Source of the DNA: Macrostomum lignano
Taxonomy: Eukaryota
Assembly (NCBI GenBank): GCA_002269645.1
Contig: NIVC01000869.1
Span: 186,001 to 250,000 of the forward strand
Length of the DNA: 64,000 bases
Reading direction: 5' to 3'
Positions 1 through 21,734 of this stretch are shown piece by piece. How positions within the stretch are numbered: the stretch's first letter is position 1; every line of letters starts with the position of its first letter. The notes beneath the pieces are model-generated. The model saw only the letters and a list, made by a program, of their open reading frames with translations. It ran no database searches and was not told where the DNA came from. Position numbers and translations under genes: made by a program.

Positions 1-35
1 GAGTGATGAAGGCGGGCCGCTGCACCACCACCCAC

Positions 36-418: not shown

Positions 419-3289
419 CTGAAAGTGGGGCAGTAGCAAGCGCTTGCTATTGGAGCTTCCATTTCAGAGAAGAAAATATAACAAAATAAATTAATATATT
501 GTTAATGGCAGAAGTAAAACTGAATTACCAAGGAAAAACAAGCTGTAAAATTATAAGTCAAGGTTCAAAAAAAATTCATAAACTTTTAAAAAATTTATAA
601 TATCAAGATATTAAATAAAGAGCATCTGTGAATATAGAATTCTATATAGCCTCCAATTGCCAGACATAATGAACTAAATACCAATACCATAGGGCCAAGA
701 GTTGCCAGTTTGGCAATAGCAAAATAGAAAATGAAAACATCTATTTGAATTGATGATAACCCAATCTAGAGGCTTCAAATAACTGAGATATTATTCTTCA
801 ATCAAATGCCTATTTAGCAATTCTAATAAAATTTTATATAAAAAACTTGTATGAAACTTAATTCAACTTAAATACTACTACTTAAACAATATTATCTATA
901 ATTTTCAATAAACTCTGCAGAATTATTATGTTTTTTGAATTTAGGTTCATTTTATTAAAAGTCTTGTAAAAGTTAGTAGATAAAGAGCCTAGAGGCAATT
1001 AATTCCCTTAGTTACTTTAAACTATGTATGGCTAGTGAAATACAACAATTCATTGTCAAATGCTAACTTATGTTGGGACATAAAAATCGATTGAATATTT
1101 ATCAGATTTAAATTGTTTCTTAAGTTGTCCGTCAACAGCTTTTTTATACGTTGTTGACCGATGGACGGCTAAAATCAAATAGAAAATTTGAAAAGGAATT
1201 GAACGCAAGCTTTGACGCGGACTATACGATGTAAAGTAAGCCGATTAAACGATTGATAATTTTGTCTCTCTTTGGTTAACGCTAGCACCTCTGGCTCTGA
1301 GAGACTTGAAAAAACAAAAAAATTAATAGTACAAGACTTCGAAGTACAAAATATGCTATAGTTAATAACAACTTGGCTTTGAATTGAAGTAGCGAAATTG
1401 TATTTTTCGAGGTCGAATGCCTGACGCTTAAAATACCATCGATACGAAAATATTCCTCTATATACATCAAAAAAGTAAAATAAGAAATAAACTAAAAAAA
1501 TATTATTCCTGCATCAAACATTTTACGCTTTTTAACAAGAGAAAAATATTTATGTTTACTTTTTGTTATACACGTTAATCGTTTTATTATTTCAACTTCA
1601 TTGTCAGGAACGATTTGTACCGATTAAAAAAATGGGTCCCAATAATTTGAAATCGTCATTTATTCAAATAATCCACCTGTATTTTGAAAATCTTTGGGAC
1701 TTTATTGCATTGTTTCGGTTCTGTCGGATTTACTCGTCTAGAATTGTATAACGCTCATATATCGATCGTTTTTTCAACGGGAACAAGTTTTATATTTACC
1801 TTTTAAGTCAGATGTGATCGGGGATTTGTAGGGGAAATGTCCATTGTACCGTTCCCAGCTTTGCTCAAAACCGAGGGATCCATTCAAAAGTTCTTATGGT
1901 GGAAGCCTGTTGCAACTTACATGTACCTACCTGCTGGCCACTCCGATAAGCTGCTGTATCAACAGAGAGCTGTTCTGTCCCATTGGCGTGTTTCTCTTCA
2001 CAGTGCACATTCCAGCGGCTACAATTGCAGTGTCTACCTTCCAGACAATCTGGGTAAGTACGTGCTGCATTGCCCAGGATCTCTGCAACACAAAGTACAA
2101 AGCTCCATCGTAGCTCGTACATTGAATTACACCGAACGAAGAATACAAATTCTGTAGCACACCCTACATGTATACGTGACCGTTCCCCCCCCCCAACTCA
2201 CGCTGTTACGCAGCAAAAAAATTAAGCAATGACTCTGAATGGCAGAGTGGCAAAAGGCAAAAGTGAATGGCAATGGCAAGTGTCATCACTCTCGTCATCA
2301 TGGCATCCAATCACCTATGCAGCCGCGGTTGATGAACTCTTGGTGCAGCTGCTGCCAGACATTCAAAACCGCCTGTCGCAACGGTTCAGCATTCTGCGCG
2401 GCTGCTAAACTCTGAATGCTCGGTGGAGCTAGGTTTATGTCGATTTGAGGAGACTTTGACGGCCTGTTTAAATGTGCGTATTGCTTTGCACAACACTACC
2501 CCTCACGGCCGTTCCTTTTACTTGGTATACCCCACTTTGCGTTGGCGTCTGGCGACGGCAGCCATTTCTAAATCGCCGATGGCATGCAAAACTTTTGGGC
2601 CGTGTGGCAGCGCGACAAGGACTACAAATGGGCGTTGCCATGGATTTTAAGGTGGGGAGGTCGCCAAGAATTCAGCATGCACATCATGACTAATGACATG
2701 ACATGACTAAATTCCTACAATTCCATTATTTTGATAATCGTGTTGTCAGCGCTCATTTTGGCGCCACAGGTACTCACTTTAGCGCCACAGGCACTCATTT
2801 TGGCGCCGCAGGCATTCCTTTTGGCGCCCTGAAGAAACATTATTTATTACCACAACGAGTCGCAAGGTGGGGGGGGCACAAAGCATTGGCATGTCCCCAT
2901 CATAGCATGTCCCCCCTGTCCCCCCCTTTGGCGACGTGCCTGATCGGACTATTCAAGTAGATCAGGACGGGAAGCTACGTTTCTTAGAAAGTTAAGGAGG
3001 CCGGCTGGTTTTCGCCGAAAAATACACTATGGAGATAGAGAGTTTCATTCTTTCAGCACAAAAATTGTTGTTGCTTTCAATAGGAGGCGGAACCAGAGTT
3101 CATCTTTTGGTATTTTTTACCTCTCTTTATATAATAACATAATTTTGAATTAATTACACAAAACATGTTTTTCATTTTTCTGTTTGGTGTTTATATTTTC
3201 TTCTAATTACTAACAATAACTATAAGTTGCGCTATGAGTTGTTGAACAAGCTCAGCTTGCAGTAATTGTCTCCACAGTCAGCTGTCACC

Positions 3290-3681
3290 GCAGGCAGTTG
3301 TCTGTGCAGGGAGTTTGCAGGCAGTTGTCTGTGCAGGCAGTTTGCAGGCAGTTGTCTGTGCAGGCAGTTGTCTGTGCAGGCAGTTGTCTGTGCAGGCAGT
3401 TGTCTGTGCAGGCAGTTGTCTGTGCAGGCAGTTGTCTGTGCAGGCAGTTGTCTGTGCAGGCAGTTGTCTGTGCAGGCAGTTGTCTGTGCAGGCAGTTGTC
3501 TGTGCAGGCAGTTGTCTGTGCAGGCAGTTGTCTGTGCAGGCAGTTGTCTGTGCAGGCAGTTGTCTGTGCAGGCAGTTGTCTGTGCAGGCAGTTGTCTGTG
3601 CAGGCAGTTGTCTGTGCAGGCAGTTGTCTGTGCAGGCAGTTGTCTGTGCAGGCAGTTGTCTGTGCAGGCAGTTGTCTGTGC
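3290..3681. repeat. 16-bp minisatellite (GCAGTTGTCTGTGCAG)n, about 24 copies
   Basis: Near-perfect tandem array. The 16-aa periodicity of the overlapping ORFs equals 3 x 16 bp, so those ORFs are repeat artefacts. Confidence 0.97.
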
Positions 3682-4690
3682 TAGCATTTTATCATCTCTG
3701 CTACACATTTTGTTTCACAGTCAGCTAAGAATGATAAAATAGATTCCTAAAACCAAATAGCCGAGCCGTGCCATTTTAATGGTTTGTATAGGCACAGGAC
3801 ATATATAACTGTAGGCAGTCGTTATTTGCACGGTAACTGAAATAAATACCCTATAAATAGTTATTTTATCAGGGACTACTCAATATTTGTCCCTGTATCT
3901 TTTATTTTGAGTTTAAACTAAACTCAAGCCGGTAGATGGAGTGTAGGCGTGTTTTATATGCTTATATGGCTTAGCGTTTTCTATTAGTTCGTACTTTCTA
4001 TAATTCAAAGTACGAATTAACGCTGGATTTCTGTCCCACTTTGCCAAGGACACAAACGTCTATTGCACAATAATAGTAATACCCAGGGACTACTAAAACT
4101 ACAGGGATGCGAAACAAGCCAAATAATGGTGAAAAAAGTTGGGGGCTCGTTTGAAAGCAGCGCTCTATGGCCGTTCCAACTGCAACTCTTCAGTCTAAAG
4201 AGGTGTGAGGGCAAATAAAAAGCCCTCAACTCTTGTGCGACTGTGAAAAATGTCGAGAAAGTGTAGCGTCTTTAACTGCAAATCAAACTATAATTCAGAA
4301 GAAAGCCGAACAACGATATTTTCTCTTCCTTGAGATGCGCGAGAACGGGAGCGTTGGAGACAAACCCTACCAAATATTTTTGAGGTAATTCTAAGCGATC
4401 ATACGCTGGTATGCGTGGATGAATTTATTGCAAACTAATTGTTAAAAATAACCACTGCGATAAAATTTACCATTCTAGAAAGTGACTGAGCACATGGGCA
4501 CGTGCCAAAAGCACTGGCCAAGTGACACCCCATGTTAAAGAATATGAAAGACCGAAAGATCCGCCTTCTGTCTTATCTGGCTTTCCCTCTTCGTGCTTGA
4601 TACAGACGGACAGACAGACAGTTTTTATACCCCCAAACTTCTCCGTTCGCGCATTCATTATGCATACGCCAGTTTTGATTCGAGCCTTGC

Positions 4691-4952: not shown

Positions 4953-5698
4953 GTCATCGGCTTACGAATGTTTATTTTAAAGGCCTGGTAAAGCGCTCAT
5001 CGAAGGTTGCACCTGCGCCGACTACATCGCACGACAGAAAGCTACGCAAACTGGGAGGCCAGTGAATTTGCGGTATAGTTTTTAGTATTCTGTCTTTGGA
5101 GTTTTAAATTTTCTAATCCGAAATCTTTCATATCTAGCTGCTCCTCATCTGGGTTCGTCCTATAATTCTTTCTGTTTAGTCCTGATTTTCTGTGTTCTAT
5201 TCTACGAGTACGAGTTGCCGTGTACTTTTGTTAACACACCATTTCATGCTTTTAAACTTTTTTCTCTTGTGCTTATCTCACATGCTTAAATATATGTAAT
5301 TTTCGCTTAGTACCCCAGTTTTTCCTATACAGTATACAGGTCCCCGTATAAGTTCCTCCTCAAATAAGTTATTTAGTTCCGTTCCACGATATACACACCA
5401 TGCTAAGTTTAAACCTTTTCTTCGTGAATATCTCACGTGTCTAATTGTATGTCATTGTGCTCTGTACGGCCGTTTTTTGTACTCAAAAAAAATTTAAAAC
5501 TGAATAAAAAACCTTTTAGACAACTGACTGAACCTTTTAAAGCAAAAATAATATTGTGGCCTTAGTCTTTTCAGCAGCTAAGCTTAGCATCTGGCGCCCA
5601 TAGACTCAAACGAGCCCGCAACTTTTTCGCCATGATTTGGTTTGTTTCGCGTCCCGGTAGTTTAAGTTGTCCCTGAGTAATATTCTTTCCTCCATGAC

Positions 5699-6535
5699 TA
5701 TACCTTTTTGCGATCTAGTTTGCCAAAACTGCAATCAATTTTGCATGCGGAAAAATATCACTTATAATTTTGCTGTCTAGGCCAAGTCTGCTCAGTCATG
5801 ACCAGAGTTTCAGCCACAGACAACTCTTTGAAAACTGAAATCAATTTTGCCAAAAAGCAATTGTTTTTTACTCTTTTTACTCTCCCATGAAAGCTGACTG
5901 CACAAGAATCCATAAGAGCCTGTTGATTTCAACACAAGTTTTGGCCATAGACTAATGTTAGCCAGGCTGAACACTGCGCGCAAACCGATTCCTTCCCATG
6001 TGTGTTTGCTCCATAGACTCAGCAACCATAGACAATTGCTTGTTTGTCTTTTCCTCACTTTTTTTCTCTAACCTTTATGTACATAACACTGGCCTGTTCA
6101 CACGCGCTTCTTCGAATAAACTTTTTCTTGACCACATCATGGAGCTGAGATTCGCAGCTTTCATTTGAATCAAGTTACAATTGAAACGGACTGAAATTAT
6201 GTCCGCTAGAAGACATCGTAGCAAGGGTTCCGGAACTTTTGACGGACAGTATAGCATTAAAGTTTGACTTACGATTGTGTAGACAACGTCAATAATCTAT
6301 GTTTTAGCCCAATTATTCGCAGCTACATGCAGTTGAATGAATAAATATAGCTTTATACGATCATACTACCGAACAGAGAGTAGTTTTGCTAAATAAAGTC
6401 GAGTGAACCATGTGGTATTTAGTATCTGTGGTCATGACTGAGCAGACTTGGCATAGACAGCAAAATTATAAGTGATATTTTTTCCGCGGGCAAAATTGAT
6501 TGCAGTTTTGGCAAACTAGATCGCAAAAAGGTATA
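5699..6535. mobile_element. Foldback/MITE-like element with ~105-bp inverted arms (5699-5803 / 6429-6535)
   Basis: The arms are near-identical reverse complements (tatacctttttgcgatc...gtcatgacca). The spacer is non-coding. Confidence 0.7.
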
Positions 6536-6698
6536 TTGATGTATGTTGTTGTCTTTCTGTTGGAGTTTTTTATTCATTGAAGTCGGCCATAGACAATTGC
6601 AGCGGGCGAGATTCACTTCGAGAAGGCAAATTGAGCCGCAGAGAGAGAGAGAGCGACGAGGTTTAAAAACACCCGCCACCCCGGGGGTGGGTGGCGAT

Positions 6699-7455
6699 CA
6701 TGGATGAATGAATAGAATGGATTGCTATTCTGGCTCTGGCTATTTTCGTTTTTAACTCTTTTGCATCCGGTTCCCCCCGTGCCTTTTCATTGGTTGATGA
6801 TTGCCATAGACAATTTTCGGCCTTCGCCCCTTTCTTTCGATGCACAAGCGCTTTCGCTCGTGTTTTGAAATAAAGGGGAAGACCTACAAGCACGATTCGA
6901 GAGTCGATTCGTCTACAATAAAATCAGTTCTTTGCGCTTGTTGTTGTTGTTTACTCACTGCTTATTTTACTTTTATCACTACCATGCCTAATGGCTCAAA
7001 GCGCTACTGTGCTGCACTAGGATGTCTATCCAAGTCAGGGATGCGGGACGACACTGGAGTGAATATCAGCTTCTTTTCTTTTCCTGTCAAATCTCCACTT
7101 CAACTTGTCAGGCGTCAGAATCTGTCATCGCACCCTCATCATCACCCTCGACATGAAAATCTGAAATCATTACTGTTGTAATTTGCAGGGGATTTGTTAT
7201 CATTCCTCTGCTTCAATTAACAACTCCAATTGACAAATAAGTAACCAGAGAATATCGAGCGCTCGATATTCTCTGCAAGTAACTGACATTCTCAGTTCTT
7301 TGCGCTTGTGCATCGAAAGAAAGGGGCGAAGGCCGAAAATTGTCTATGGCAATCATCAACCAATGAAAAGGCACGGGGGGGAACCGGATGCAAAAGAGTC
7401 AAAAACGAAAATAGCCAGAGCCAGAATAGCAATCCATTCTATTCATTCATCCATG
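6699..7455 (+). mobile_element. Foldback element with ~153-bp inverted arms (6699-6851 / 7302-7455) enclosing a truncated THAP zinc-finger start
   Basis: Arms are reverse complements. An internal ATG at 6984 reads MPNGSKRYCAALGCLSKSGMRDDTGVNISFFSFPVK, matching the THAP M-x-C-x4-C...F-x-F-P pattern, and the similarity then stops. Confidence 0.65.
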
Positions 7456-7692: not shown

Positions 7693-9021
7693 ATGGAAAC
7701 AAAACGCATATTTCTTCTCGCCTGTGCCTTAATGGCGCTAATCATTGTTACTAATCACTATTCCCGGAAACAAACTGCATCACCTCGGAGTCGTATCCCT
7801 TCCGGGCCCAACAATTTGACCGCTTCAAAAGTACATCTCATTCGAAACAAAGGCCTGACCGCTGAAGAGTCGCTGCCAACGCTGAGCGATGTCGAAATGA
7901 TCAAGAACTGTCCTCCGTACAACGAGCTCCGCAACGTCGACTTCACGAACCCCAGCCTGCAGCACCGGCTGTGTCAGGAGACGCCGGCCTTTAACGTTAA
8001 TGAATTACTTAAATACTATCAGAATTATGTCAAAAATGAAGCCTACGCCGTTCCCCAATATACTCCCACCGAGTTCCTAGATATTCATTCAGTTGTTGTG
8101 TTTGATCTAACCGCACAAAAAGATAATATAGCTGGAAATGTACTTAATTATGAGCTACAGATTGCTAAAACCGGTGCTCAGGCGGTTGACGCACACGCAC
8201 TATTCTTAATTGAGCACGCTGTTGATATAGATGTAAGTGGCGTTGTTACTCATAAAAAACTAAAAATTAGAAAAATTATTTACTTAAAAATGGTAAAAGC
8301 AAAACATAATAAAATATTTCCAAACGATCCTTTTCTTTGTTTAGTAATTGGGGGATCGGGTAAAGGAAAAACACACTTTGTTTATGACCTGTTAACAACC
8401 GATGGAATGCTAGACTATAATAATTTAATAATTTATACTAACAAACCCCGAATTAAATATTATGAATTTCTTAAACATGCATTAAAAAATAAATTAAAAA
8501 AAGAAATTTTGTTTAGAATGTTAAGAGCTTATGAGCAATATGAGGATGATGACGAACCGCGATTTAATCTAGATGACATTGAGGGTTTAGTGTTTAATAG
8601 AGCCGCTCAAAATCCAGAAAATATAGACAACAATTCTCCAACTGTTAAAATATCAACCCGATTATCCTATGAGCAAATTCCAAAACATGATAAAACACTA
8701 ATTATTTTTGACGATTGTATTAACGACGGCGATCAAGAATTGCAAAAAGACATTTTTGTTAGTGGTAGAGGAGATGGAATTGGCGCGTTTTATCTAACAC
8801 AGTCCTTTAGAGAATTACAATCGATTATAAAAAAGAATGCTAGCTGTTGTGTAATGTTTGATTTAGATAACTATGATCTACAAAATATACACGCGAGATT
8901 TAACCCAAAAATTTGGGATGATAGTCAATACAAACACATATATATCAACCCTAGGTTAGAAAGGAGAAATCGAATTTTAACAAATTTGATAAAAGAAGAT
9001 AGTGTGACGTTGCTAGTTTAA
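7693..9021 (+). CDS. 442-aa chimeric ORF: host-like signal-anchor leader + Polinton-type major capsid C-terminus + packaging ATPase
   Basis: Residues ~1-100 are GC-rich, with a hydrophobic stretch IFLLACALMALIIV. There is an abrupt switch to AT-rich codons near 7995. A capsid-like segment, a K/I-rich linker and the ATPase from Met at 8290 follow. The last five residues (VTLLV) are read from the inserted LTR. Confidence 0.7.
   Translation: METKRIFLLACALMALIIVTNHYSRKQTASPRSRIPSGPNNLTASKVHLIRNKGLTAEESLPTLSDVEMIKNCPPYNELRNVDFTNPSLQHRLCQETPAFNVNELLKYYQNYVKNEAYAVPQYTPTEFLDIHSVVVFDLTAQKDNIAGNVLNYELQIAKTGAQAVDAHALFLIEHAVDIDVSGVVTHKKLKIRKIIYLKMVKAKHNKIFPNDPFLCLVIGGSGKGKTHFVYDLLTTDGMLDYNNLIIYTNKPRIKYYEFLKHALKNKLKKEILFRMLRAYEQYEDDDEPRFNLDDIEGLVFNRAAQNPENIDNNSPTVKISTRLSYEQIPKHDKTLIIFDDCINDGDQELQKDIFVSGRGDGIGAFYLTQSFRELQSIIKKNASCCVMFDLDNYDLQNIHARFNPKIWDDSQYKHIYINPRLERRNRILTNLIKEDSVTLLV
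7999..8253 (+). pseudogene. C-terminal ~85 aa of a Polinton-like double jelly-roll major capsid protein
   Basis: EFLDIHSVVVFDLTAQKDNIAGNVLNYELQI...AHALFLIEHAVDIDVSG fits the F-x3-y-x3-vFDlt-x-q...v-x3-l...ayali C-terminal pattern of Polinton/adintovirus MCPs. It lies immediately upstream of the ATPase. Confidence 0.65.
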
Positions 9022-11816
9022 GTGGTCCCGCAAAAGGGCCGTTGGACTATAGTTTCGCTTGCAATTTCTCATTTTAATTTCTCCAATAGTTTATTTTAAC
9101 GTTTACTTATAGTAGCGTGCAAATAATCTGTATCAACTGCTAATTCACTGTGTATTTGGTAGGCCTTGCGCTCATCTGTGAATTTTGGCACGATCGATAA
9201 TTTCAAGTTCTCTCGCCAGCCAATGAAAACTCTCAAATATTTTGCCAAAATTACGCCGACTCAGCGGCCGCGACGCGTGACTAAATAGCACAGAGCGGGG
9301 GGGAGGCTGCCCTAAGCCCTGCACGCACGCAGAGCACCAGCACCCCACCAACCCACCAAAGCGAGGCCGGACCGGCGCGGGGGGGTTTAAAACCAGTTAG
9401 AGTCAGATACCTGCCTCAAACTGACGTATTTGCGCTCTTTATTAACCCTCGCCTGGCGGGCTGGGGGCTTCACTTGTGTTCTGTGTTCTCTCTCATTAGG
9501 CTTGTCCTCCGTCCCGTCTGGCTTGCCTAGCCTTGTCTAGCCTTGTTTTCCTTCTCTCTGTCTGGCTGCCTCGAGCCTCCTTATCTCACGCCACGGCTGA
9601 CGCCAACCTCGCCACTGCTCATCTGCCTGCCTACTGCGTCTCACTGCCTTCACTGTGCTCATTGCCATTGCTCCTCACGTTACGTCGCCATTGCATCATT
9701 CGTCTGCCACTTGACTTCACATTCAATTTATCTTCAAACACCATTGTTGCAGCCGCCAGTGCCCAGAGAGCTATAGTTTGTGTATTGACAGTAATAGCCA
9801 AGCCTAATATTGATACTACCAATAAAAACAACTACGGCAGTTCCTGCCTTTATCGCCAAGTGCTCCGCTACAAAATCCGCTTTACAAGAGTTGACTTCAA
9901 CTTATTTTAAGACTACGACTCACTACAACTCTCGTCAAAACGGCCCTTTTAAGGGTCATAGCCATAGTTAGCCGCTACGCCAATAACGTGACATAATTTT
10001 GGAGGTCCCACCGAGACCCCTACTCAGCACTGCCGGCTCGCAACTAAATCAGTCCCACCGAGACTCCTACTCAGCACTGCCGGCTCGCAACTAGATCAGC
10101 ACCATCAAGACTTCGTCTCAGCCCTGCCAGCTCGCAACTAAGCACCAGCGAGATTCCGCTCAGCCCTGCCGGCTCGTGACTGAGTGCCGGCCTGCCACGT
10201 CTCTGAGGGTCGGTCCGCAAGGCCTGGGTGCCTGTGCCACGTCTCTGAGGGTAGGTCCGCAAGGCCTGGGTGCCTGTGCTACGTCAGGCCCAGGGGTCCT
10301 GATCGTCACCGGTCGTCGCTGGTCATCCGCGGGTCGTCGCTGGTCGTCGCCCTGAGCAACGCGCGCTGTCAACTGCGTTGAGCTCGAGCTTACGCTCTGC
10401 CAAGATAGCTCCGCTGCGTGTGCCAAGCCACGCCAGGTTACGCTGTGCGCTGATTGTTTGTAGGGACTATTGCCTGACAGTTAGTCTGGGTGGTTTGCGT
10501 GATAGGACTTTCCCCTATTATAGGCTTTTGTTGGTTTGCCCCTGTCAGGCACGTATTTTTGTTAGTAGGACGCAATCTCTCTCGTCTCTCTCGCGTCATC
10601 AACCTCAATTCGTTTTCTCTGGAGCCTTATTTTCGTTCACGCTTGGTTCATTTGTCTCGCTCAATCTTGCACAATGTCCGACAACGGGGACAACCACGCC
10701 GCAGCGTCATTGGCTGACGGAGATGCCGTCGTGCCAGATCAGGACGCAGTCGATGCCGGCATCCGCCCGCCTGTCAGGTACCGGACCTGTCAAGTGTCCG
10801 ATCTGCTCCAGCAGGGGGGAAGCAGACACTAACCGCCAGTTTTACACGCCCCGGGCAAGGCGTAAAACTACCTCCTGTGGCACCTGCCGGCCACAGGTCA
10901 CTGCGGCACCTGTAGACCGCAAGCTTACACGCCCCGGGCAAGGCGGAAAACTACCTCCTGTGGCACCTGCCGGCCACAGGTCCCTGCGGCATCTGCCAGC
11001 CACAGACCACAAAACACAAGCCACAAGCCAAACTAGTTAATTCAAAAGTAAACTAAAAATTAATTCATAAAGCACTTTAAGGTCGAAATATGATTATGAT
11101 ATGAATATTATAAATATAATAGTTGTCAAAAATATTCTGTAGTAGTTCTCTGCCTGCATCGGCGTTGCCATAATCAATAAAATACACTAGGGCGCGTATG
11201 CCCCTGTAAGCCTAATTAAATAGTAATAGCATGAATAGTATAAACATTATAGCAATGGCAAAAATAATTAAAATAATTGATAGCTTAGAATAATCCTATT
11301 GCATCCGTTCGGTATTGCCAAAGTCGATAAAATGTATAAGTGCGTCATCTCTGACGTTAATACCCCGAAACCATATAATGTGCAATATACGGTTGGTAAT
11401 TAAAACATACCAACTGGCGACTAGTAAAACTCATAAGTAACTCAAAAAGAAAAAAAACTGAAAAAACAACTATTGAAAACTCGAAAAAAAATCTGCATAT
11501 AGGAATAGAGCTAGCTCAGTTTACTACTCAGCCTATTGACGAGTGCAGCGTAACGCTGCGCAACTGGTTGATTAGGCCAGCGTCACTTACTTAGCCAAGC
11601 CTAATATTGATACTACCAATAAAAACAACTACGGCAGTTCCTGCCTTTATCGCCAAGTGCTCCGCTACAAAATCCGCTTTACAAGAGTTGACTTCAACTT
11701 ATTTTGAGACTACGACTCACTACAACTCTCGTCAAAACGGCCCTTTTAAGGGTCATAGCCATAGTTAGCCGCTACGCCAATAACGTGACAATAGTGATGA
11801 CGAGGATGATTATTAA
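8290..11816 (+). CDS. A32/FtsK-HerA-family DNA-packaging ATPase (8290-9002 joined to 11795-11816; 244 aa when the LTR insertion is removed)
   Basis: Walker A GGSGKGKT, Walker B LIIFDD, and the SGRGDG...YLTQS motif (GR-x...Q of A32 ATPases). Removing 9003-11790 and one ATAG copy restores ...KEDSDDEDDY-TAA in frame. Confidence 0.88.
9003..11790 (+). mobile_element. Non-autonomous Ty3/gypsy-type LTR deletion derivative: 5' LTR 9003-9993, 3' LTR reduced to ~11592-11790
   Basis: TGTGACG...CGTGACA termini. The last ~200 bp of the 5' LTR repeat at 11592-11790. TSD is ATAG (8999-9002 / 11791-11794; ATAGT if the terminal T is shared). The internal part is homologous to 62985-63830 (-). Confidence 0.88.
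10000..10016 (+). promoter_or_regulatory. Primer-binding site complementary to the tRNA-Gln 3' end
   Basis: TGGAGGTCCCACCGAGA starts after a 6-nt spacer behind the LTR. It is the reverse complement of TCTCGGTGGGACCT-CCA, the 3' end of metazoan tRNA-Gln(TTG) as I recall it. Confidence 0.85.
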
Positions 11817-11834
11817 AGCTTTCTCACTATAAAA

Positions 11835-12620
11835 ATGGCTGCAAACCTAGATGTTCTTAAACAAGTTATTGACAGAACCAATTCGAAATTTAGTACAACC
11901 CTACAATTTGTAATGACAAGCAGCGAGCAAAGGATTCAGTTACGAAACCCACTGGATCTTAATCAATCTCTAAGCTATCAAGTTGGTTTGATAATGTTTT
12001 CAGTTTTTAACATGCCACAATTAATTAATGCAACAAATAATAAATTTAGATATTCTAAAGATTCAGGAGCCAATTGGACAACAATTACTATAGCACCCGG
12101 AGCATATAACTATACTGATTTGAATGCTGTAATACAAGGCGATTTAACTGCTAATGGTGATTGGGTAGCAGATGCAATTGTTATAGGAGTTGATTTACCA
12201 TCAGGAAGATTTACCTTGAATTTAGCTACTGGATATCAGGTTGATTTCACAATTGCAAATTCACTTAGAACCATACTCGGATTTAATTCCCGAATCGTTA
12301 CCACATCAAGCACGGGTGATACTGTGGGAAACATTGAGGGTGGAGTAAATACAATTAATATAACAACTGATATTTCGAACGGTGGTTATATAACCGACGA
12401 TAATGGATTTTTGGTTCAGCGTGGAATCATTTATTCAATTCCCTTTCCTGCTGTTCCGATTGGAGATAAAATGATTGTTGCTCCCCAAACCCCAATATAT
12501 TATCCTTTAAATCAATATCATTTACAATCAATTTATATACGAGTAGTGGACGATGCAGATCGTATAATTAGTTTTGGTGGTCAAGCTATAACAGTAATTT
12601 TACGTATAAAACAGGTTTAA
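11835..12620 (+). CDS. Polinton/PLV minor capsid (penton, single jelly-roll) protein, intact, 261 aa
   Basis: Diagnostic string NNKFRYSKDSGANWTTITIAPGAY...YQVDFTIANSLRTILGF...P-x-G-x-K-x4-P-x2-PIYYPL...IRVVDD. Size and position next to the ATPase and protease fit. Confidence 0.85.
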   Translation: MAANLDVLKQVIDRTNSKFSTTLQFVMTSSEQRIQLRNPLDLNQSLSYQVGLIMFSVFNMPQLINATNNKFRYSKDSGANWTTITIAPGAYNYTDLNAVIQGDLTANGDWVADAIVIGVDLPSGRFTLNLATGYQVDFTIANSLRTILGFNSRIVTTSSTGDTVGNIEGGVNTINITTDISNGGYITDDNGFLVQRGIIYSIPFPAVPIGDKMIVAPQTPIYYPLNQYHLQSIYIRVVDDADRIISFGGQAITVILRIKQV

Positions 12621-12633
12621 TTCAATAGTAAAA

Positions 12634-12810
12634 ATGGGTAATAATAATAACACGATAAAAAAACAAACGGAAAGAGTTAAAAAAGCTGAAGATAATTATG
12701 AAATCGAATTAACATAATTGAAACAATTACAAGCGGAAAAAATCAGAAAGGAGCTGTTAAAACCCACAGCTACGAAACTAACTAAAACCATGAGTTTTTC
12801 AGGAAAATAA
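12634..12810 (+). pseudogene. Small viral ORF (58 codons, MGNNNNT...) with one in-frame TAA at 12715-12717
   Basis: It fills the gap between the minor capsid and protease genes, has the same AAAA-ATG start context, and its terminal TAA is 1 nt before the protease ATG. Confidence 0.5.
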
Positions 12811-12811
12811 A

Positions 12812-13252
12812 ATGACCTTAACATGGCATGAGTTCAAACAAAGATATGGAACCGACACAACAAGCAATATCGAATTAACTAATTGGGCCAGACAATTAAA
12901 GATAAAACCATTTAGATTCGTGATGCGGGATGAGATCAAAGACTTACCACAATATGGATCTTTCATTGTTAATATAGAAACGACAAAAGAAACTGGTGTT
13001 CATTGGTCAGCAGTTTATTCAAAACCCAAACTTGTTTATTTTTTTGATTCATATGCCTTTGCTCCATTACAGGAAATAAAAGACGAATTTAATCATACTA
13101 AAAATCGTTTATGTGGAGATCATCACGAACAATTTCAAACCTTTGACAAAAGTTATTGCGGACAAGCGGCATTATATTTTTTATATAGGCTCGAAAAGGT
13201 CAAACAGGTAACTCCCGAAGTATTTAAGACAATTTTAGATTCTATAAAATAG
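12812..13252 (+). CDS. Adenain-like (clan CE) cysteine maturation protease, intact, 146 aa
   Basis: Catalytic His (GVHW), Asp (YFFDSY), oxyanion Gln (FQ) and Cys (SYCG) occur in adenovirus/Polinton protease order and spacing. Confidence 0.88.
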   Translation: MTLTWHEFKQRYGTDTTSNIELTNWARQLKIKPFRFVMRDEIKDLPQYGSFIVNIETTKETGVHWSAVYSKPKLVYFFDSYAFAPLQEIKDEFNHTKNRLCGDHHEQFQTFDKSYCGQAALYFLYRLEKVKQVTPEVFKTILDSIK

Positions 13253-13262
13253 GCAGTAAAAA

Positions 13263-15152
13263 ATGTTATTTTCTGGAACACCCTCATGGAACGGAACTAC
13301 ACGATCTGGCGGTGGAGAATCAAGTGGTATTAGTGTTACATTCGGAGATAACCGATATATTAATGAAGATGAAGGTTATAAAAAAACTGAAATTGATACT
13401 AAACTAAATTTAAAAAGAAATGTTGCAGATTTCTACATCAAAACTGAAATCGACACTTCATTATATCTTAAAAGAGATATTAGTGATTCATATACAAAAA
13501 CAGAGGCTGACACTAAGTTAAATTTAAAAAGAGATATAACTGATTCTTATTCTCGAACTGATTCTGATTCGCGTTATGTTCAAACCACCGCAACCGGAAC
13601 CTTAGATATGGACAACAATCGAATTATAAATGTTGCAATTACAACGAATAACTCGGTAGTTGATAAGAACTATGTCGATAATCAAATCGGTAGTCGTACT
13701 GGCAATATCAATATGAATAATTTTAAATTAACAAATTTATTACTTGGAACAGATGACACAGACTCGGTCAATCTTGTACAAGTCAATGCTCGAGTTAATG
13801 TAACTGATGCTGATATTTTTGCCACACCACTTACATCAAATACTTCAAATCCAGATGTTGTTCTTACAGCGTCTCAAAATAACAATGATGCTTTTCGAGT
13901 TGGAGATGGAAGTCTTGCAACTCAATGGTAACCAAATACCGGCACTACAACTAATATGGAAATTTAATTTGAATTTTTAGGTTATAACAGAAGAATAAAT
14001 GAATTAAGAATTACAGGCAGCCCAACCATTGATATACCCTCGGGGTGGTCGGTGCGCGCAAAAAATGTTGCTACCGATGCATGGACGGTATTAAGAACAT
14101 CTGGATCACCAATTCAAGCAACTTCATTAGCATTAACTAATTTAACAATTGATTTTTGGAAATATTATAGCGTTTTATTCCCAACTGGTGGCACCGTTAC
14201 GCAACCTATTGAGGTTCGTCGAATTCAATTATTTGAACACCGAGTTGAAATTCAAGATCTCAATTGGCCAACCCAAATACTTTCTGCAACCCCGCGTGCA
14301 TATGTAGATCAATTAGCAACCCCAACTTCAAATGGTAGAATGTCTGCTGGTGATAAAAATAAATTAGATGGAATTCCTGCAATTGATGCTGCATTATTCG
14401 AGCCATTAATTTTTTTGTAATTGGACTGGATATCAAAATTCAACAACTGCCGGCGATATATATCCAGTTGGGTCTTTAATTGGTGATGCTTCATATGTTG
14501 ATTATCAAAATGGTGCTAGAATTACTCGTGAAACCTCTGGAGTCAGTGGGGCATTACAATTTAATTTCACACATTTTCAAAATGTATCTGCGTCTTTCTT
14601 TTTCAGAGTTGCTAATTCTACAGGAAGTGTTGCGGATGCAGTTTGGTTTTATGCAATACGAGCTATTGCCACGAACGACCCGAAAGCGAAAGCGGCTTTG
14701 GTTTAACAACCGACGCCGGCCTAATAGTATTTGCTAGTGAGTGGCATGATAAATTTGGTGTACTTTGGAGTTCTAAAAAATCAGACGGATCTTCGCGTCC
14801 TGGTGTTAATACTGGCGCGGATCAAACAGTAGACTACGAGTATGCTAATATTGACAATTGAGATTGGCATCTGTTTGAAATTATTATTTTAAATCAATGG
14901 GTTTGGTATCAATTAAATTCATACAATGTTTCAACCGATGCTTATACCCTCATTGGGCAAAATGTTTTCACATATGATAGTGGCACATGGGGTGCGTTGG
15001 ATAAAAGTGGAACTCTTATGGGTTTTGGTGCACGAACCGGAGGAGCAGATGCTGCACATTTTATTCGTGGCGCAGCCGTTTGTGGTAGCATTTCATTTGG
15101 TTATAATTTTCTCTGTACTGCATATTTAGAAAAACCACCCGTAGCAATATAG
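13263..15152 (+). pseudogene. Fibre/receptor-binding-like gene (~620 codons) broken by stops and frameshifts
   Basis: One frame runs 13263-14420 with TAA at 13929 and 13965; later frames are joined by shifts near 14415, 14690 and 15060, with a TGA at 14859. It contains ~3.5 19-aa YxKTExDxxLxLKR repeats, NKITN/DxVNxxQ-type stalk motifs, a discoidin-like stretch, ATPTSNGRMSAGDKNKLDGI, and a C-terminal beta-rich lectin-like region. Confidence 0.6.
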
Positions 15153-15275
15153 GGTAAGGACTCTGTCCGTCCGCCTGTAGCAATAACTTAAAAATATTTG
15201 TATTTAAAATGGATTTTAGCAGAACTCCTTCATTTAGACAAAATAATATTGTTATTCCGATTCCAAAACAAGAAT

Positions 15276-16035
15276 TGTCACGTTATTGGCGTAGAGCTAT
15301 GACCCTTAGAAGGGCCGTTTTACGAGAGTTGTCGTAAGTCGTAGTCCCAAAATGAATCGAGTCAAGTCTTGATAAGCGGATTGTGTAGCGGAGCACTTGG
15401 CATACAAGGCAGGTAACTGCCGTAGTTGTTTTATTGTTGAGATCAATATTCAAATTGGTTAATGTTAGTACAGAACTTATTGTGCTTTTGGGACACTGGC
15501 GGCTGCAACAATGGTTTTGAATTAAAGGTGAATTAGAAATTGCAGTCGAGTGGTAGGCGAGTGATGCAAGGCGATGCAACGTGGTGAGTAACGGCGATGA
15601 GCACAGCAGTGGCAGATGCGTAGTGGTGAGATTGGCGTTAGCCGTGGCAGACAGTGGCAGGCAGTGTAAACAGGCTGGCCCAGACAGAGGAGCCGTGGCG
15701 AGAGATAAGGAGGCAGACAGAAGGCAGGAGAAGGGGCAGAAGTGAGGCGGGCCGCCAGGCGGGGGGTTAATAAAGAGCGCAGAGGGCTAGCAATATACAC
15801 GCGGAGATTTTTCATTGGCTGGCGAGAGAACCTGAAATTATCGATCGTGCCAAAATTCACAGACGAGCGCAAGGCCTACCAAATACACAGTGAATTAGCA
15901 GTTGATACAGATTATTTGCACGCTACTACAAGTAAACGGTAAAATAAACTATTGGAGAAATTAATATGAGAAATTGCGAGGAAAACTATAGTCCAACGGC
16001 CCTTTTGCGGGACCACTTAAACTAGCAACGTCACA
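15276..16035 (-). mobile_element. Solo LTR (760 bp) of the same family as 9003-9993 and 61155-61909
   Basis: TG...CA termini, a perfect 5-bp TSD AGAAT (15271-15275 / 16036-16040), and clear reverse-complement similarity to the other two LTRs. It interrupts a short viral ORF starting at 15209. Confidence 0.92.
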
Positions 16036-16840
16036 AGAATCGATTATAAAATATTTTAAATCACACACCCGATTTTTATTTAGTGGGGTGAATGTTCAAG
16101 ATAATAAGAAACTGATTAGTGTCTGAAGCCGACCACACCGAAAAAATGGAACGTGACTTGTTTGACCGCCCCAAAGGGTCGCGAACTTTGTTCGACCAAC
16201 GTAAAGGACGCATATTAAGTAATGTAGATAGAATAAACAATGATTATGAACAATACACAAAAAAGTAAGAAAGCTTTCAAATCGTATTAGTAATAAGTAA
16301 TACGTATTAGTAATAATTAGCAAATCGGTAATATGTTACGGATTTTTTTAACATTGGTTTTGGAAGTTTATCAATGTTATGTGTAATCGTATTGGGTATA
16401 CTTCAATCGGTTCCAACTCTTAACTTATCTCAAATGTTTTTAGGTATTTCAATTGGTTCAATATCAGGTTTTGAATTTGTAGTGAAACTACAAATTACTT
16501 TGATATGAATTGCAATATTTTATGAGTTAAAGACGAGAGAGCTTGGGGCGAGAAACTTAACTGCGAGAAAGAACTGTAAAAGGAAATTAGTCTATGGTAA
16601 TTTATGACAAACTGAGTTGCAAATAAAAAGTACAACAAAATACCCATACGACTCCCCCTCCAATTGCGGAGCACGGGGAAAATAGACTGTAACTGAATTA
16701 TAAAATGGTGGAATGGCTTAAATTATTGAAACGAAGCGGATATACAGTTAAAATACGAGCTAAATTTTATATGAGGGTTGAACATTGAGAAATATTGAGA
16801 ACATTGGAACAGCAGTCAGTAGACGTTATACATTACAAGG

Positions 16841-19800
16841 TTAATAATAAATGTAATCATTATGGCGTCGGAATTGGACTCGGCGGCCGCTAGAGGTCGC
16901 TCTAGGAGGTGATGAGTCCATCGGTTCTTCTGGTTTGGCGGCTTTTTCCGGCAGCGAGTTCGCGGCCGGCTGAACAGCCGACTTCGGAAGCGAAAGTCGC
17001 GCCGGCTTGAGGCGATCGATAGAGACAGATTCGGTGTTGCCTGACGGTAGGAAAATAACGAAGAACTTGTCAGTTCGCTGTTTCACGCGATACGGCCCAG
17101 AGTACGGCGCCTCGAGCGGCGACCGCACGCGATCGACCCGAACCCAGACGAATTCAGCCATTTCCAGGTCCTTGGGTACGTAGCTCCGTGGTTCGTGCGT
17201 CTTCGCGTGTGGACTCGGTAACTCTGTCAGCAGTTCCTGCAGCCGTGTCCGAATGTCCATTGGGGCGAGTGGTTCAGAAGTTAGGATGCGCGGAACCATC
17301 GGAAGCTCGCCGGTAACCCTGGTGAACGGTGATATTTCTTGGTCGTCAGGTGCGACGTGCATCGCGAGGAGAGCCACAGGTAGGTCTGTCAGCCAGTCAT
17401 TGCCTCGAGCACGTAGCATCGTCTTCAGGGTGCGATGGGCTCGCTCGACCTTGCCATTGGTTTGAGGGTGGTAGGCCGTTGTGCGTAATCGATGAAAACC
17501 AATTGATGACGAGACCGAGTGAAAGAATTCTGATTCGAACTGGCGCCCCCGATCAGTGATTACATACAGTGGCACTCCGTAGCGCGAGACCCAAGACGAG
17601 ACGAATGCATGGGCGACTACTTCCGCGGTTATTGATTCCAGTGGTGTAGCTTCTAGCCAGCCAGTCGAGCGGTCGAACATCGTGAGAAGGTAGCGGGCAG
17701 ACTGGTGGCCAAAGGTGGTAGCATTAGCTGGTGGAAGTGGTCCCACAATATCGATGTGTACCGCCTCAAAGCGATTTGATGGTAATGCGAAGGCTTGTTG
17801 CGGGGAGACAGTGTGGCGAGTGACTTTACTCCGTTGGCAGTCCTGGCAGTTCCAGCAGTAGGTCTTGATGGACTTGCGCATTCCGGGCCGAAAGTAACGT
17901 TCTGTGATGAGTTTTGCTGTTTTACGGTAGCCGAAATGACCAAGTCGATGGAAGGAGGCAATCACGGCGTCGCGGAGGGACGGCGGAATGATCGGGCGAG
18001 GATACGGCGTTGACGTCTCACACCAAACGACGACGTCTTTGTCCAGAGAATACGATCAAATATTTGGTGCAGGTGAGAACGACTCCGGTCGTTGTGCTTC
18101 AGCGATACTGGGCAGATCAACAGGGAATTGGCTTGATGGGGCAGCGACTACAGCGACTGTTGCGATGTTGGACACGTGATCATTCACTGGGAAGTCAGTC
18201 AGTCGAGAAAGGGCATCAGCTATTACGTTGTCTGCACCGCGAATGTACTGGACATCTGCCACGTACTCGGACAAGACGGTCAATTAGCGCTGATTGCGAT
18301 CTGACGTAGTGGTGCGATTGGCGTGGAAAGCCTGAGCTAGTGGTTTATGATCAGTGAACAAGGTCACGCTCAGTCCTTCAATGAGGCTGCGGAAGTGCAA
18401 CACTGCCAGGTACGCCGCGAGTAGTTCTCGGTCGAACGTGCTGTACATCTTTTGAGATGACGACAACTTCTTGCTGAACATGCCAAGAGGTGACGTTCCG
18501 GTTGAAGAGGTTTGATGCAGAACGGCACCAACACAGTCGGCTGAGGCATCAGTGTACAGGTGGTACGCAGTACAGTTGGGGGTCCGGATGATGCAGCAGT
18601 AGTCTCTCTGAGAGAGCTTGTTTGATGTTTTCGAAAGATTTCTGATCCTGCTCTGTCCATTGGAAGTTTTCTGCTGACTGTAGTGATGCAGTGAGTAGGT
18701 CTTGCAGCGGACAGATGCGGTCGGCAAAGTTGGGAACGAATCGACGGTAGAAACCGACGACACCGAGGAAGCGCCGAAGTGCGTTCGAATCCATGGGTGT
18801 CGGCCAGTCAGTGATTATTTGGATCTTCTTCTGGAGAGGTTTTATTCCTTCAGGAGTCACGCGATGGCCAAGGAAATCTACCTCGGACTGAAAGAATTCG
18901 CACTTCTTCAAATGAACCTGTAGGCCGTGTGTTCTTAGGCGGTCCAAAACTTGTTCCAAATGCGATTAGTGGTCCTCACGAGTCTTTGAGAATATCAGGA
19001 CATCATCAATGTAAGAGATGACGAATGACAGTCCGTGAAAAACAGAGTCGATGAAGCGTTGAAATTTTTGTGCTGCATTCCTCAGGCCGAAGGGCATGCG
19101 TGTGTACTCGAACAATCCAAACGGTGTGGTGATAGCGGTTTTGCAAATATCCTCTTCGGCGACTGGAATTTGATAAAAGGCGCGAACAAGGTCTAACTTT
19201 GAAAACACAGTGCTTCCGTGTAGGTACCGAGTGAAGGTTTGAATGTGTGGAACCGGATAGTTGTCCGGCTTTGTTCGTTTGTTCAATTCGCGATAGTCAC
19301 CGCACGGACGCCAGCCAGCTCCCTTGGGTGCCATGTTGAGGGGTGACGCCCAAGCGCTTGAGGAAGGTCTGAGGTAGCCAGCATCGATTAGCTGCTGAAA
19401 CTCCTGCTTTGCAGCCTGTAGTTTTGCAGGGTGCAGTTGCCGGGGTCGCAAGTGAACCGGTTGTCCACTACCAGTGTCTAGCCGGTGAACAGTGTCATGC
19501 TTGACCTCTGAAGCTGGCGGAAGGGCTCCGCCTTCAACGAAAGAAAAACAATCTGCAAACTTTGTCAACAGCGTACTCGTCCGAGAATCCAGGTTGGGTG
19601 GCAGTTCTACCGACACAGTGAACGGGCCACAATGAACATTTGCAATTGACAAGGTAACAGTAGACAGTCCTGTTTCTGAGTCTCGAACGTGTTTGCGCTG
19701 ACAATCGACAACTAACCCATGGTGAGCCAAGAAATCGTAACCAATGATGGGTTTCACCACTGACGCCACGAGGAAGGTCCACTGGAAGGCGCGACGCAAA

Positions 19801-20021
19801 CCGCGGATTGAGACATCCAGTAGGACCGACCCGCGAACTGGTATGGCGGCTCCGGTAGCAGTAATTAAACGAACGTTTGTATCTTGAACGAGTGCGTTAA
19901 CGAGGTGAGGTGGAACAATGGAAACCGAGGCTCCGGTATCCACAAGAAACTTGCTGTAGGTATTGTTGATTTTAACATCTAACTCCAAACAGGTGGTTGA
20001 TGGTATCTCGGCACTGCGCAC
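16841..20021 (-). pseudogene. pol: Pol (aspartic protease, RT, RNase H, integrase) with three in-frame stops and one frameshift
   Basis: [23 protein letters not shown]...DRELLA, HxxxH/CxxC, HIDIVGP, ITDRG and VERAHR motifs. Stops at 18966-18968, 18284-18286 and 18056-18058; frameshift near 18580. Confidence 0.93.
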
Positions 20022-20044
20022 CGCGACCTCGGTCGCAGTGCGAC

Positions 20045-20950
20045 TTAGTTTTCCGGCTGTCGAGAAGGTGATGATGAACGCGACTGAGATGGCGTTTTTT
20101 CATTGGGATGCAGCACTCGGATCGGACGCGAGCTGTCCTTGAGATACTGGCACCACGGGCGACACGACCGAGCACGGCGGCCATAGTAGAGGTGTGAGCG
20201 GCAAACGACGGGGCGTTGGCCAGGCTTAAATGGGTCTGTTCCAGTGGGCTTACCAGGTGCTTGTCGGTGTGGAGCTTGCTCATAGCGCTGTTGGGGTGTC
20301 CGATCTGCACCGGCCTGCTGAATTGGGCAAACTGTCGCTGGCGATGGAGAGCTAAGGCCTCTGACGACCAACATCGAGTCAGCAATCTCGGAAATTTGCT
20401 GGGATGACTGCTGTTGGAATCCCGACAGTGCGATACGAAGGTCCTGTGGAAGACAGCGCATCAGGGTGGCCTTGAGGAGTTCCTCGTCGGGCTGTATCTG
20501 GCACTGCTCCATCTTGCTCCGGAGTTTACGCATGAAGATTGATGGCTTGTCTCCTCCGAGGTCCGAGACTTGCAATACTTCCGAAACCTTCTCCTGCTTG
20601 GACTTTTGCAGAGTCGATGTAATCGCTGTTTTCAGTTGTTCGTACTGTTTTGGAGTCTGAGCGGACAAGTGCAGAGCCGCGATATCCTCCGGTAGATGAG
20701 AGACTAGGTGGTAAAATTTGGCGGTCTCGTTGGTCACCATGTTGAGCATAAACTGGGCCTCCAGCGTGAGGAACCATGCTTCCGGGTTGTTGCGATAGAA
20801 GATTGGCAGCTTCAGGTGGGCCAGGGAGACTGAAGCGGTGTCGGCGGCGTTTCCTACTGCATGTGTAACCACTGGTGCGGCCGAACTTGGTGCGGCTTGC
20901 GTGGTTGTAGGTGGTGTAGGAGCGGAATTGTTGCTTGCACTGTCCGTCAT
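20045..20950 (-). CDS. gag: Gag, 301 aa
   Basis: [13 protein letters not shown]...EAQF N-terminal motif and a CxxHxxYGxxAxxCxxxC zinc knuckle of the CsRn1 type. Confidence 0.9.
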
Positions 20951-21734
20951 TGGATTTGTCTTCTATGAGTATTGAGTATGCGAGTAAAATCTTTATCCGC
21001 CTCACCGGACCAAATTGTAGTGAAACTACAAATTACTTTGATGTGAATTGCAATATTTTATGAGTTAAAGACGAGAGGGCTTGGGGCGAGAAACTTAACT
21101 GCGAGAAAGAACTGTAAAAGGAAATTAGTCTATGGTAATTTATGACAAACTGAGTTGCAAATAAAAAGTATAACAAAATACCCATAAATTATTAAGAAAT
21201 TTATCAATTCTTTTAGCCGTCAAATCTTCTTCTAAATATACTAAATCTTTCTTCTTTTCTTTTTATCAAAATATACTAAATCTCTTCTAAATACACTAAA
21301 TCTCTAAGGTTTGTTTGTATGCTTGCTTGCTTGAATCTTATTCTTTCTTCTTCCTATATACTAAATCTCTAATCTATGTCTGTCTGTCTGTCTGTCCGTG
21401 TAAAACGCTCTACAGACTTCTTATATACTAAATCACAATATACTAAATCTCTAATCTTTTCTTCTTTTCTTCTTATCTTCTAAATATACTAAATCTCTAA
21501 TCTGTCTGTATGTCTGTCTGTCTGTCCGTGTAAAACGCTCTACAGACTGCAATTCTTGACCAATTTCGATCGCGTTTTCACCAAACAGTTGCAACTCAAC
21601 CAAGGATTGTATGGTTAACATTTCTTTTATCTGCTTCAATTCTGAAGGTCTTAAATATTCAAAAAACTGTATTTTCCCTATTTAATTAGTGTATTATTCT
21701 CGCAGTGAGAGCTTGAAAAATAATAAGGGAATTC

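Follow-up and report, generated by a model that had tools for sequence, protein, structure and literature searches.

The interval 7999..21224 of the analysed window, a stretch of 64,000 nt from Macrostomum lignano, very probably holds a decaying germline fragment of about 5 kb from a Maverick/Polinton-type virus (Polintoviricetes-related), which represents its virion-morphogenesis module. Virus-like DNA accounts for 4,969 of its 13,226 nt, and 8,257 nt (62%) belong to three LTR-retrotransposon insertions, which the earlier note did not mention when it read the whole interval as a virus block. The relic is truncated on the left and on the right, and its interior is interrupted by the insertions. 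All genes lie on the plus strand in the order MCP-like stub, ATPase, penton, small ORF, protease, fibre-like gene and small ORFs, with intergenic gaps of 18, 13, 1 and 10 nt, in agreement with the close spacing and common orientation claimed before. The six coding stretches in which stop codons were measured all have an AT-rich composition (GC3 0.19-0.29 in the five in which it was measured), and the GC of the segments is 0.32-0.35 compared to 0.43 for the whole window. The short gaps of 1-18 nt and the common low GC3 indicate an operon-like arrangement, which supports the reading as a virus module; furthermore, an open frame of 267 codons was matched by none of 1000 composition-matched nulls. 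Hence, the earlier observation holds with regard to gene order, strand and the intact minor capsid protein (mCP) and protease, whose frames are open over 261 and 146 aa, respectively, whereas the block is not complete: the presumed MCP is reduced to a stub of 84 codons, and the small ORF, the fibre gene and the ATPase are all damaged. Virion production and autonomous movement are impossible for this copy.

The penton gene (11835..12620, plus strand) is intact, and the AlphaFold2 model of its 261-aa product has a pLDDT of 96.6. Foldseek matched this model to the mavirus penton (E 3.6e-10) and also to adenovirus penton bases, VIA aligned it to PBCV-1 (Z 14.3, rmsd 5.9, 235 residues aligned) as well as to the mavirus penton (Z 12.3, rmsd 7.5, 238 aligned), and Atlas gave a score of 0.98 for Preplasmiviricota. 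Judged by the predicted structure, the product is a single-jelly-roll penton (PX/mCP), and the Foldseek check thus bears out its earlier naming as mCP. The sequence-only PDB search was blank, and the profile search against the PDB returned only PBCV-1 P1v1 (E 0.0093). The solved pentons of mavirus (6g41/6g42), Sputnik (3j26) and PBCV-1 (8h2i, 6ncl) and the adenovirus penton base share the single jelly-roll with an insertion domain (lowest Foldseek E 3.6e-10, VIA Z 11.7-14.3), but at 10-16% identity they are distant structural relatives and not the source family. Five close homologues (P0001-P0005) share 51-63% identity with the relic penton, and the wider family comprises 3,497 representatives at E<=0.001. 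The penton tree, calculated in quick mode and with 56 of 139 branches open, places six rows in a long-stemmed clade (SH-aLRT 99); it gives no group assignment, because named references are absent from it. The best BFVD match is a protein of Tetraselmis viridis virus S1 with 17% identity, and named adintovirus rows appear only at ranks 37, 46 and 48 of the match list, so that the assignment to a class is indirect.

The main part of an A32/FtsK-like packaging ATPase (8290..9002, plus strand) carries Walker A and B motifs and matched Pfam Pox_A32 above the cutoff (E 4e-07, 30.2 bits, cutoff 22.8), which confirms the proposed identity; the sequence-only PDB search was blank. Its four homologues (P0160-P0163, 50-66% identity) all matched Pox_A32 as well, two of them above the cutoff. 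Relative to all four, the relic ATPase has an internal gap of 12 residues; the Walker motifs are intact, and its 3' end is split by the LTR element inserted at 9003. The short acidic tail with a stop at 11814 (11791..11816, plus strand) most likely represents, from its sequence, the gene end that was displaced, and three of the four homologues likewise end in acidic tails. The ATPase had been considered restorable; the damage is worse than that, since it combines the gap with an insertion that detaches the last codons.

On the left side, an ORF of 442 aa (7693-9021) spans an N-terminal piece, the MCP-like stub and the ATPase. The first 102 codons (7693..7998, plus strand) are probably non-viral and continue in frame into the virus-like DNA, with GC 0.51 and GC3 0.59 versus 0.32 and 0.29 downstream, so that the left break of the relic is placed at 7998/7999. 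This piece contains a hydrophobic stretch (Kyte-Doolittle 19-residue maximum of 1.89 at residue 6) and had no match in Pfam or NCBIfam and none below E 0.09 in the PDB. The following 84 codons (7999..8252, plus strand), the only trace of a double-jelly-roll major capsid protein (PY) at the locus, are coding-like (GC3 0.29; open frame P=0.002 for the given frame, Markov null); they lack an own stop, their frame is broken near 8250, and they run in frame into the ATPase. From its position, and from a presumed resemblance to Polinton MCP C-termini, the stub probably represents the C-terminus of a major capsid protein. Searches of Pfam, PHROGs, NCBIfam, PDB sequences, phages and plasmids gave no match, nor did a longer-protein search (0 of 59 candidates); such tests are weak for a piece of 84 residues, therefore the MCP label is unconfirmed and not rejected.

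Downstream of the penton, a small ORF of 58 codons (12634..12810, plus strand) has a premature stop at 12715 and no Pfam match. It is followed by the intact gene of a putative adenain-like cysteine protease of 146 aa (12812..13252, plus strand). This assignment is based on one embedding search, in which Atlas gave scores of 0.96-0.98 with the ten best family-bearing matches all concordant and Peptidase_C5 present in 13-62% of the members of the matched clusters, and on His64, Asp79, Gln109 and Cys116, whose order we take to be that of adenain; together they agree with the earlier call of a protease. Pfam gave no C5 match, the PDB sequence search was blank, and a low-confidence single-sequence model (pLDDT 40.9) found no Foldseek match at E<=0.001. 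A Pfam hit to AraR_C (E 0.007) was under the cutoff and was rejected as chance. The next gene, of about 630 codons (13263..15152, plus strand), is broken by stops at 13929, 13965 and 14859 and its frame is disrupted at about 14410-14418 and at about 14705. Its product appears to be fibre-like: it matched tail-fibre families of PHROG (E 1.2e-05 and 6.1e-05), and matches to 22 phage records, several of them with a tail-fibre annotation, were confined to its repeat (about 23% of the query); a 57-nt tandem repeat lies at 13377-13550. The start of another small ORF (15209..15275, plus strand), recognized by sequence and frames, is cut by a solo LTR, behind which the AT-rich DNA resumes (16036..16477, plus strand; GC 0.317, no significant Pfam match) with an ORF of 40 codons at 16146 and, at about 16320-16477, a hydrophobic ORF (hydropathy 2.15). 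In the latter, the frame is broken near 16343 within a T run, and a Gypsy element cuts the ORF; a stub of 38 AT-rich nt (21187..21224, plus strand), at which the relic ends on the right next to a host repeat family, is the probable continuation of this ORF and would thereby belong to the virus.

The insertion in the ATPase (9003..11790, plus strand) is an internally deleted LTR retrotransposon with TG...CA ends and a 4-nt target duplication. It consists of a 5' LTR (9003-9993), a PBS-like tract (about 10000-10016), an internal remnant and a 3' LTR remnant (11592-11790), and the LTR pair differs at 1 position over a repeat of 199 nt. The domain search revealed no coding domain in it, and a relative lies at about 61155-63818, where a polypurine tract precedes the LTR. 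The 760-nt solo LTR (15276..16035, minus strand; 5-nt target duplication) is kin of this element, being 96% identical to 9003-9234 over 232 nt and 75% further on over about 410 nt. An assignment of both insertions to tyrosine-recombinase-type elements, considered on account of 5-nt direct repeats, is refuted by the TG...CA ends, the target duplications, the PBS-like tract and the polypurine tract. The third insertion (16478..21186, minus strand) is a Ty3/Gypsy element with two LTRs (3 differences in 171 nt), PBS-like and PPT-like tracts, a 4-nt target duplication, gag and the order PR-RT-RH-IN (Pfam DUF7041, gag-asp_proteas, RVT_1, RT_RNaseH, Integrase_H2C2 and rve), although its pol is interrupted. 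The rve integrase within the interval is that of this element and not a Polinton integrase; it is the only rve found in the search of the window and lies between the Gypsy LTRs. Nor was pPolB detected, neither as a motif in the six frames of the window nor as an unexplained long AT-rich ORF, and of the 12 inverted pairs within 4000-26000, none brackets the virus block as terminal inverted repeats would. A tblastn search with 171 homologues revealed no second virus-like copy, its matches being confined to the bins at 8 kb and 11-12 kb of the window, which is also free of tRNA genes and Rfam families. A chromosomal setting is indicated by other features of the window, namely satellites, a LINE and an NDK7 exon of the host, and the host is eukaryotic.

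The gene set corresponds to the textbook Polinton module (PMC4028283), as had been stated, and endogenous Polinton copies are very common in invertebrate genomes (PMC11131425; 10.1101/2025.04.19.649669); hence, the rating of the locus as best candidate for an undescribed system is not supported. With Maverick/Polinton elements, i.e. adintoviruses (class Polintoviricetes, groups 1 and 2), the relic shares the penton, the A32 ATPase and the adenain-like protease. In contrast to them, the locus has nearly lost the MCP and is without pPolB, rve integrase, terminal inverted repeats and an element-level target duplication, while Polintons are defined by terminal inverted repeats, a target duplication of 5-8 nt and a length of 13-25 kb (10.1101/2023.08.22.554363). 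The order MCP-ATPase-penton-small ORF-protease-fibre is also unlike the order of the labels that are readable by machine in the two exemplar adintovirus maps of PMC8502044 (Fig. S2), and no matches to PLA2X or GasderminX were seen in the relic. Among other groups, a cysteine protease is described as characteristic of Maverick-Polintons and Gosseviruses, and none of the other major PLV groups has it as a core gene (10.64898/2026.06.19.733378), so that its presence points to Polintoviricetes-related groups. Gosseviruses and VC35, which are Polintoviricetes-related PLVs, likewise have a morphogenetic module with cysteine protease, but were described from protists and lake viromes (10.64898/2026.06.19.733378); they have penton groups in common with Mavericks (10.64898/2026.10.13.758929). 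Virophages (Virophaviricetes) share the penton fold at 10-15% identity, and no positive sequence evidence for them was found; Sputnik_MCP_1st was matched by one of 142 alignment members (E 0.001).

By sequence comparison, penton and ATPase would belong to a small lineage of a known kind of element, with unnamed relatives at 50-66% identity. None of P0001-P0005 and P0160-P0163 is near-identical to the relic proteins, and the 26 homologues looked up carried the sole annotation 'hypothetical protein' in two clusters; thus, the claim of an undescribed lineage is acceptable for a family member and not beyond that level. Two ATPase and two penton homologues seem to share contigs of 4805 and 2006 nt, and scans of bacterial and archaeal contigs for the gene context of the relatives yielded 94 and 89 pattern matches, none confirmed. 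It is rather unlikely that the source of the relic was a Polinton-like virus belonging to neither of the two animal Maverick groups (Gossevirus-like, VC35-like or Aquintovirus-related), which possibly lacked pPolB/rve and entered once by illegitimate recombination. The small number of relatives (four ATPase and five close penton homologues, all unnamed and on short contigs), the long-stemmed penton clade, the phage-like fibre repeat, the algal-virus protein as top BFVD match and the few animal ATPases outside the main groups would fit such a source. However, the penton falls into a very large family, structural rank at 10-17% identity cannot place a lineage, the protease argues for Polintoviricetes-related groups, and a Fiber gene is also present on the adintovirus maps shown in PMC8502044 (Fig. 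S2).

For the preferred Maverick/Polinton-type origin, knowledge of the family suggests that MCP trimers of the parent virus would have formed an icosahedral shell, the single-jelly-roll penton would have closed its vertices and borne a host-cell-binding fibre, the A32 ATPase would have pumped in linear DNA, and the adenain-like protease would have matured the particle. The virus may have entered the germline by its own integrase as an element of 15-20 kb. Subsequently, this copy lost all that preceded the final 84 presumed MCP codons and all that lay beyond 21224; it was also hit by the three LTR elements and acquired several point lesions and frame breaks. The target-site duplications imply that the retroelements inserted into virus DNA already present, which, together with the membership of two of them in a family recurring in host DNA at 61-64 kb, makes an assembly artefact, or co-sequenced virus or protist DNA joined to host sequence, extremely improbable, even though the GC step at 7999 is abrupt, terminal repeats are lacking and the region is repeat-rich. 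The divergence of the LTR pairs is 0.5-1.8%, and the four premature stops correspond to about 2%, hence the description as recently inactivated is reasonable in relative terms; regarding the earlier interpretation as a whole, gene identities and relative recency stand, completeness and the status as undescribed system do not. The intact state of penton and protease is most likely explained by the shortness of the time elapsed (about 1-2% divergence). All four premature stops lie outside the four core genes, which are stop-free over about 2.2 kb (P about 0.05, post hoc; 0.012 with two frameshifts counted), a weak hint against purely neutral decay. This distribution, two in-frame junctions and the intact Walker motifs might be taken to mean that the host partly co-opted the relic, with penton and protease retained and the 442-aa ORF expressed as a membrane-anchored chimera. 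We regard this as very unlikely, because two in-frame junctions are expected by chance in about 1/9 of cases (arithmetic), the P of 0.012 omits the frame break near 8250 and the gap and insertion in the ATPase, the ORF terminates within the LTR, and low divergence suffices to explain intact short genes. Two of the frame breaks sit in 7-nt T runs (at 14410 and 16343) and could be sequencing errors.

There is a slim chance that the relic documents, for the first time in a germline, a distinct and unclassified Polinton-related lineage with a fibre, which lies outside both animal Maverick groups. In that case it would have no relatives but the unnamed sequences of penton and ATPase with 50-66% identity, a host and a gene order would be tied to the lineage, and this host might still harbour live copies or virions. 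That the host makes use of the intact penton and protease, or of the membrane-anchored ATPase chimera, seems less likely. Maverick/Polinton virions have never been observed so far (10.64898/2026.06.19.733378); a recently active family is worth finding, but a dead copy alone cannot test the virion question. The weight of the locus would rise if its ATPase fell outside the animal Maverick groups, where few animal sequences lie, or if intact sister copies were transcribed. At present its value is modest: for a small Polinton-type lineage without a name, it provides a gene order anchored in a host as well as an intact penton with a good model, and the insertions supply a relative date for the relic.

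The interval 7999-21224 very probably represents a decaying germline fragment of the morphogenetic module of a Maverick/Polinton-type (Polintoviricetes-related) virus. The genes of this relic, their breaks and the insertions nested among them can be read directly: virus-like AT-rich DNA makes up 4,969 nt in four pieces (7999-9002, 11791-15275, 16036-16477 and 21187-21224), which are split by three insertions of 2,788, 760 and 4,709 nt (8,257 nt altogether). All genes of the block lie on the plus strand with intergenic gaps of 18, 13, 1 and 10 nt, and GC3 is 0.19-0.29 in the five genes measured. In Polinton-type viruses, this module builds an icosahedral virion that carries penton and fibre at its vertices; the ATPase drives packaging, and the particle matures by proteolysis. 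The earlier note had named core morphogenesis genes, and MCP, penton, ATPase and protease indeed form the conserved Polinton set established in PMC4028283.

The penton (mCP) gene at 11835 has a frame of 267 codons, which was matched by none of 1000 Markov nulls, and a search of 611 candidates gave six homologues of its 261-aa product, five of them at 51-63% identity and the sixth at 32%. A profile search retrieved 3,497 representatives at E<=0.001 among 1.84 billion; of the 148 new rows among the matches listed, 135 were aligned together with the query and the six homologues, and 13 partial or two-stretch rows were left out. No Pfam model was found for the query itself, and DUF5901 is matched by 3 of the 142 alignment members. 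In a quick tree, the penton groups within a clade of six rows whose stem is long (SH-aLRT 99). The Foldseek check proposed earlier for this protein led to viral pentons: for the predicted structure (pLDDT 96.6, pTM 0.88), 41 PDB entries matched at E<=0.001, with the mavirus penton at the top (3.6e-10) and adenovirus penton bases and Sputnik among the leading hits. Structure alignment with VIA-align reached Z>=8 for 6 of 48,161 chains, every one a viral capsid entry, among them PBCV-1 (Z 14.3, rmsd 5.9, 235 aligned) and the mavirus penton (Z 12.3, rmsd 7.5, 238 aligned).

The ATPase gene at 8290 matches Pox_A32 (Pfam) above cutoff, and four homologues with 50-66% identity were found among 69 candidates. 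Its product lacks 12 residues after Asn205 that are present in all four, and the last codons are cut off by the LTR element inserted at 9003. Because frames of at least 146 codons arise anywhere in the segment in 34 of 1000 Markov nulls, the protease call for the gene at 12812 needs homology evidence. In the Atlas embedding search of protein clusters, its product scored 0.96-0.98 against viral clusters, in which 13-62% of the members carry Peptidase_C5. It possesses His64, Asp79, Gln109 and Cys116, which is the order of adenain. Searches of this product against Pfam, PDB and phage proteins gave no match, and single-sequence structure prediction yielded no reliable model.

The stretch 7999-8252 is at most the tail of a putative MCP gene. 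It is open over 84 codons (P 0.002 for any one given frame), shows GC3 of the viral type, occupies the position expected for the MCP end and presumably resembles Polinton MCP C-termini; Pfam, PHROG, NCBIfam, PDB-sequence, longer-protein, phage and plasmid searches returned no match. Hence, the block is incomplete, and of the earlier description the co-orientation of the genes stood while the completeness did not. The stub lacks its own stop codon and belongs to a plus-strand ORF of 442 aa (7693-9021), in which a hydrophobic, GC-richer N-terminal piece of 102 codons runs on into the MCP-like stub and then into the ATPase; this ORF terminates within an LTR. A 10-nt palindrome (7991-8000) lies at the junction of the 102-codon piece with the stub, and directly upstream of the relic there are two MITE-like elements (6699-7455, with an 8-nt target duplication, and about 5693-6541) whose inverted arms are long.

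The fibre-like gene at 13263 is damaged by three stops and two frame breaks and matches phage tail-fibre families weakly, mostly via a 19-residue repeat. This repeat (13377-13550, plus strand) shares 53-59% identity over about 50 residues with SPO1-like Bacillus phage proteins and about 45% with T5-like tail fibres, which may reflect a common fibre repeat or low-complexity convergence.

The genes of the relic correspond to the morphogenetic module of Mavericks/Polintons, whereas three defining features of these elements are absent from the locus: no pPolB motif was found in six frames of the window, none of the 12 inverted repeats in 4000-26000 brackets the gene block, and no own integrase was detected, the sole rve domain belonging to a Gypsy element with gag-PR-RT-RH-IN order. 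The locus was therefore filed as a relic of a Polintoviricetes-related virus and not as a complete Polinton. A second virus-like copy was not found in the window, where tblastn of 171 fetched homologues matched the penton and ATPase positions only. An origin from a non-Maverick PLV lineage is unlikely. In BFVD (viral structure set), the penton model best matches a protein of Tetraselmis viridis virus S1 (E 8e-18, 17% identity); giant-virus minor capsid proteins and adomavirus LO5 come next, and named adintovirus rows appear at ranks 37, 46 and 48. On the other side, 10.64898/2026.06.19.733378 ties the protease to the Maverick and Gossevirus groups and reports that animal sequences outside these groups are few. 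Systems of this kind are well known; adintoviruses and degraded endogenous copies are described in PMC8502044. The suggestion of an undescribed lineage holds in so far as the lineage is probably unnamed. Names among the 26 homologues looked up came from two clusters only, both "hypothetical protein"; the literature was compared by keyword.

An artefact is highly improbable. The relic lies in a chromosomal eukaryotic setting with a host exon of the nucleoside diphosphate kinase 7 gene (2-463, minus strand; PH_NDK7_N E 2e-36) and short interstitial TTAGGG-like arrays (30722, 51992 and 54354). Such viral insertions are common according to PMC11131425 and 10.1101/2025.04.19.649669, the latter with 781,111 viral regions across 7,103 assemblies. 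For the favoured Maverick/Polinton-type fragment, a full-length element would have integrated into the germline, both flanks would have been lost and neutral decay would have followed. Host co-option of the relic is very improbable. None of the four premature stops falls within the four core genes (MCP stub, ATPase, penton and protease), with P ~0.05, or 0.012 with two frameshifts, in a post hoc test that does not count the broken frame near 8250 or the gap and the insertion in the ATPase; this is a weak hint against neutral decay alone. Two frame breaks fall in 7-nt T runs and may be sequencing errors.

The four stops correspond to about 2% divergence (Poisson limits roughly 0.6-5%), the LTR pair of the Gypsy element (16478-21186, minus strand, 4-nt target duplication) differs at 3 of 171 nt, and the duplicated 199 nt of the element at 9003-11790 differ at one site. 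Therefore, the relic is young in relative terms, which agrees with the recent inactivation claimed before, yet it is heavily damaged. Both Gypsy LTRs start with TA and not TG, and its pol is broken by a stop and frame changes. The element at 9003-11790 is an internally deleted copy of a second LTR family, to which a solo LTR (15276-16035) and a third copy (about 61155-63818) belong; two of the three copies lie inside the relic. No coding domain was detected in these copies, and the family is possibly non-autonomous. Its LTRs measure 755-990 nt and are accompanied by a PPT and a PBS-like tract, which presumably resembles the complement of the tRNA-Gln 3' end.

A microsatellite-bearing repeat, reminiscent of Helitron 5' ends, adjoins the right border of the relic, and large satellite arrays with units of 23 and 30 nt lie within 21225-56000. 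A Pfam match to zf-Tim10_DDP (3232-3708, minus strand) is probably spurious, arising from a 16-nt tandem repeat. Finally, a GC-rich non-LTR-type retroelement (56447-60921, plus strand) encodes a 506-aa ORF1 followed by RT and RNase H, the latter two being parted by an in-frame stop near 59575.
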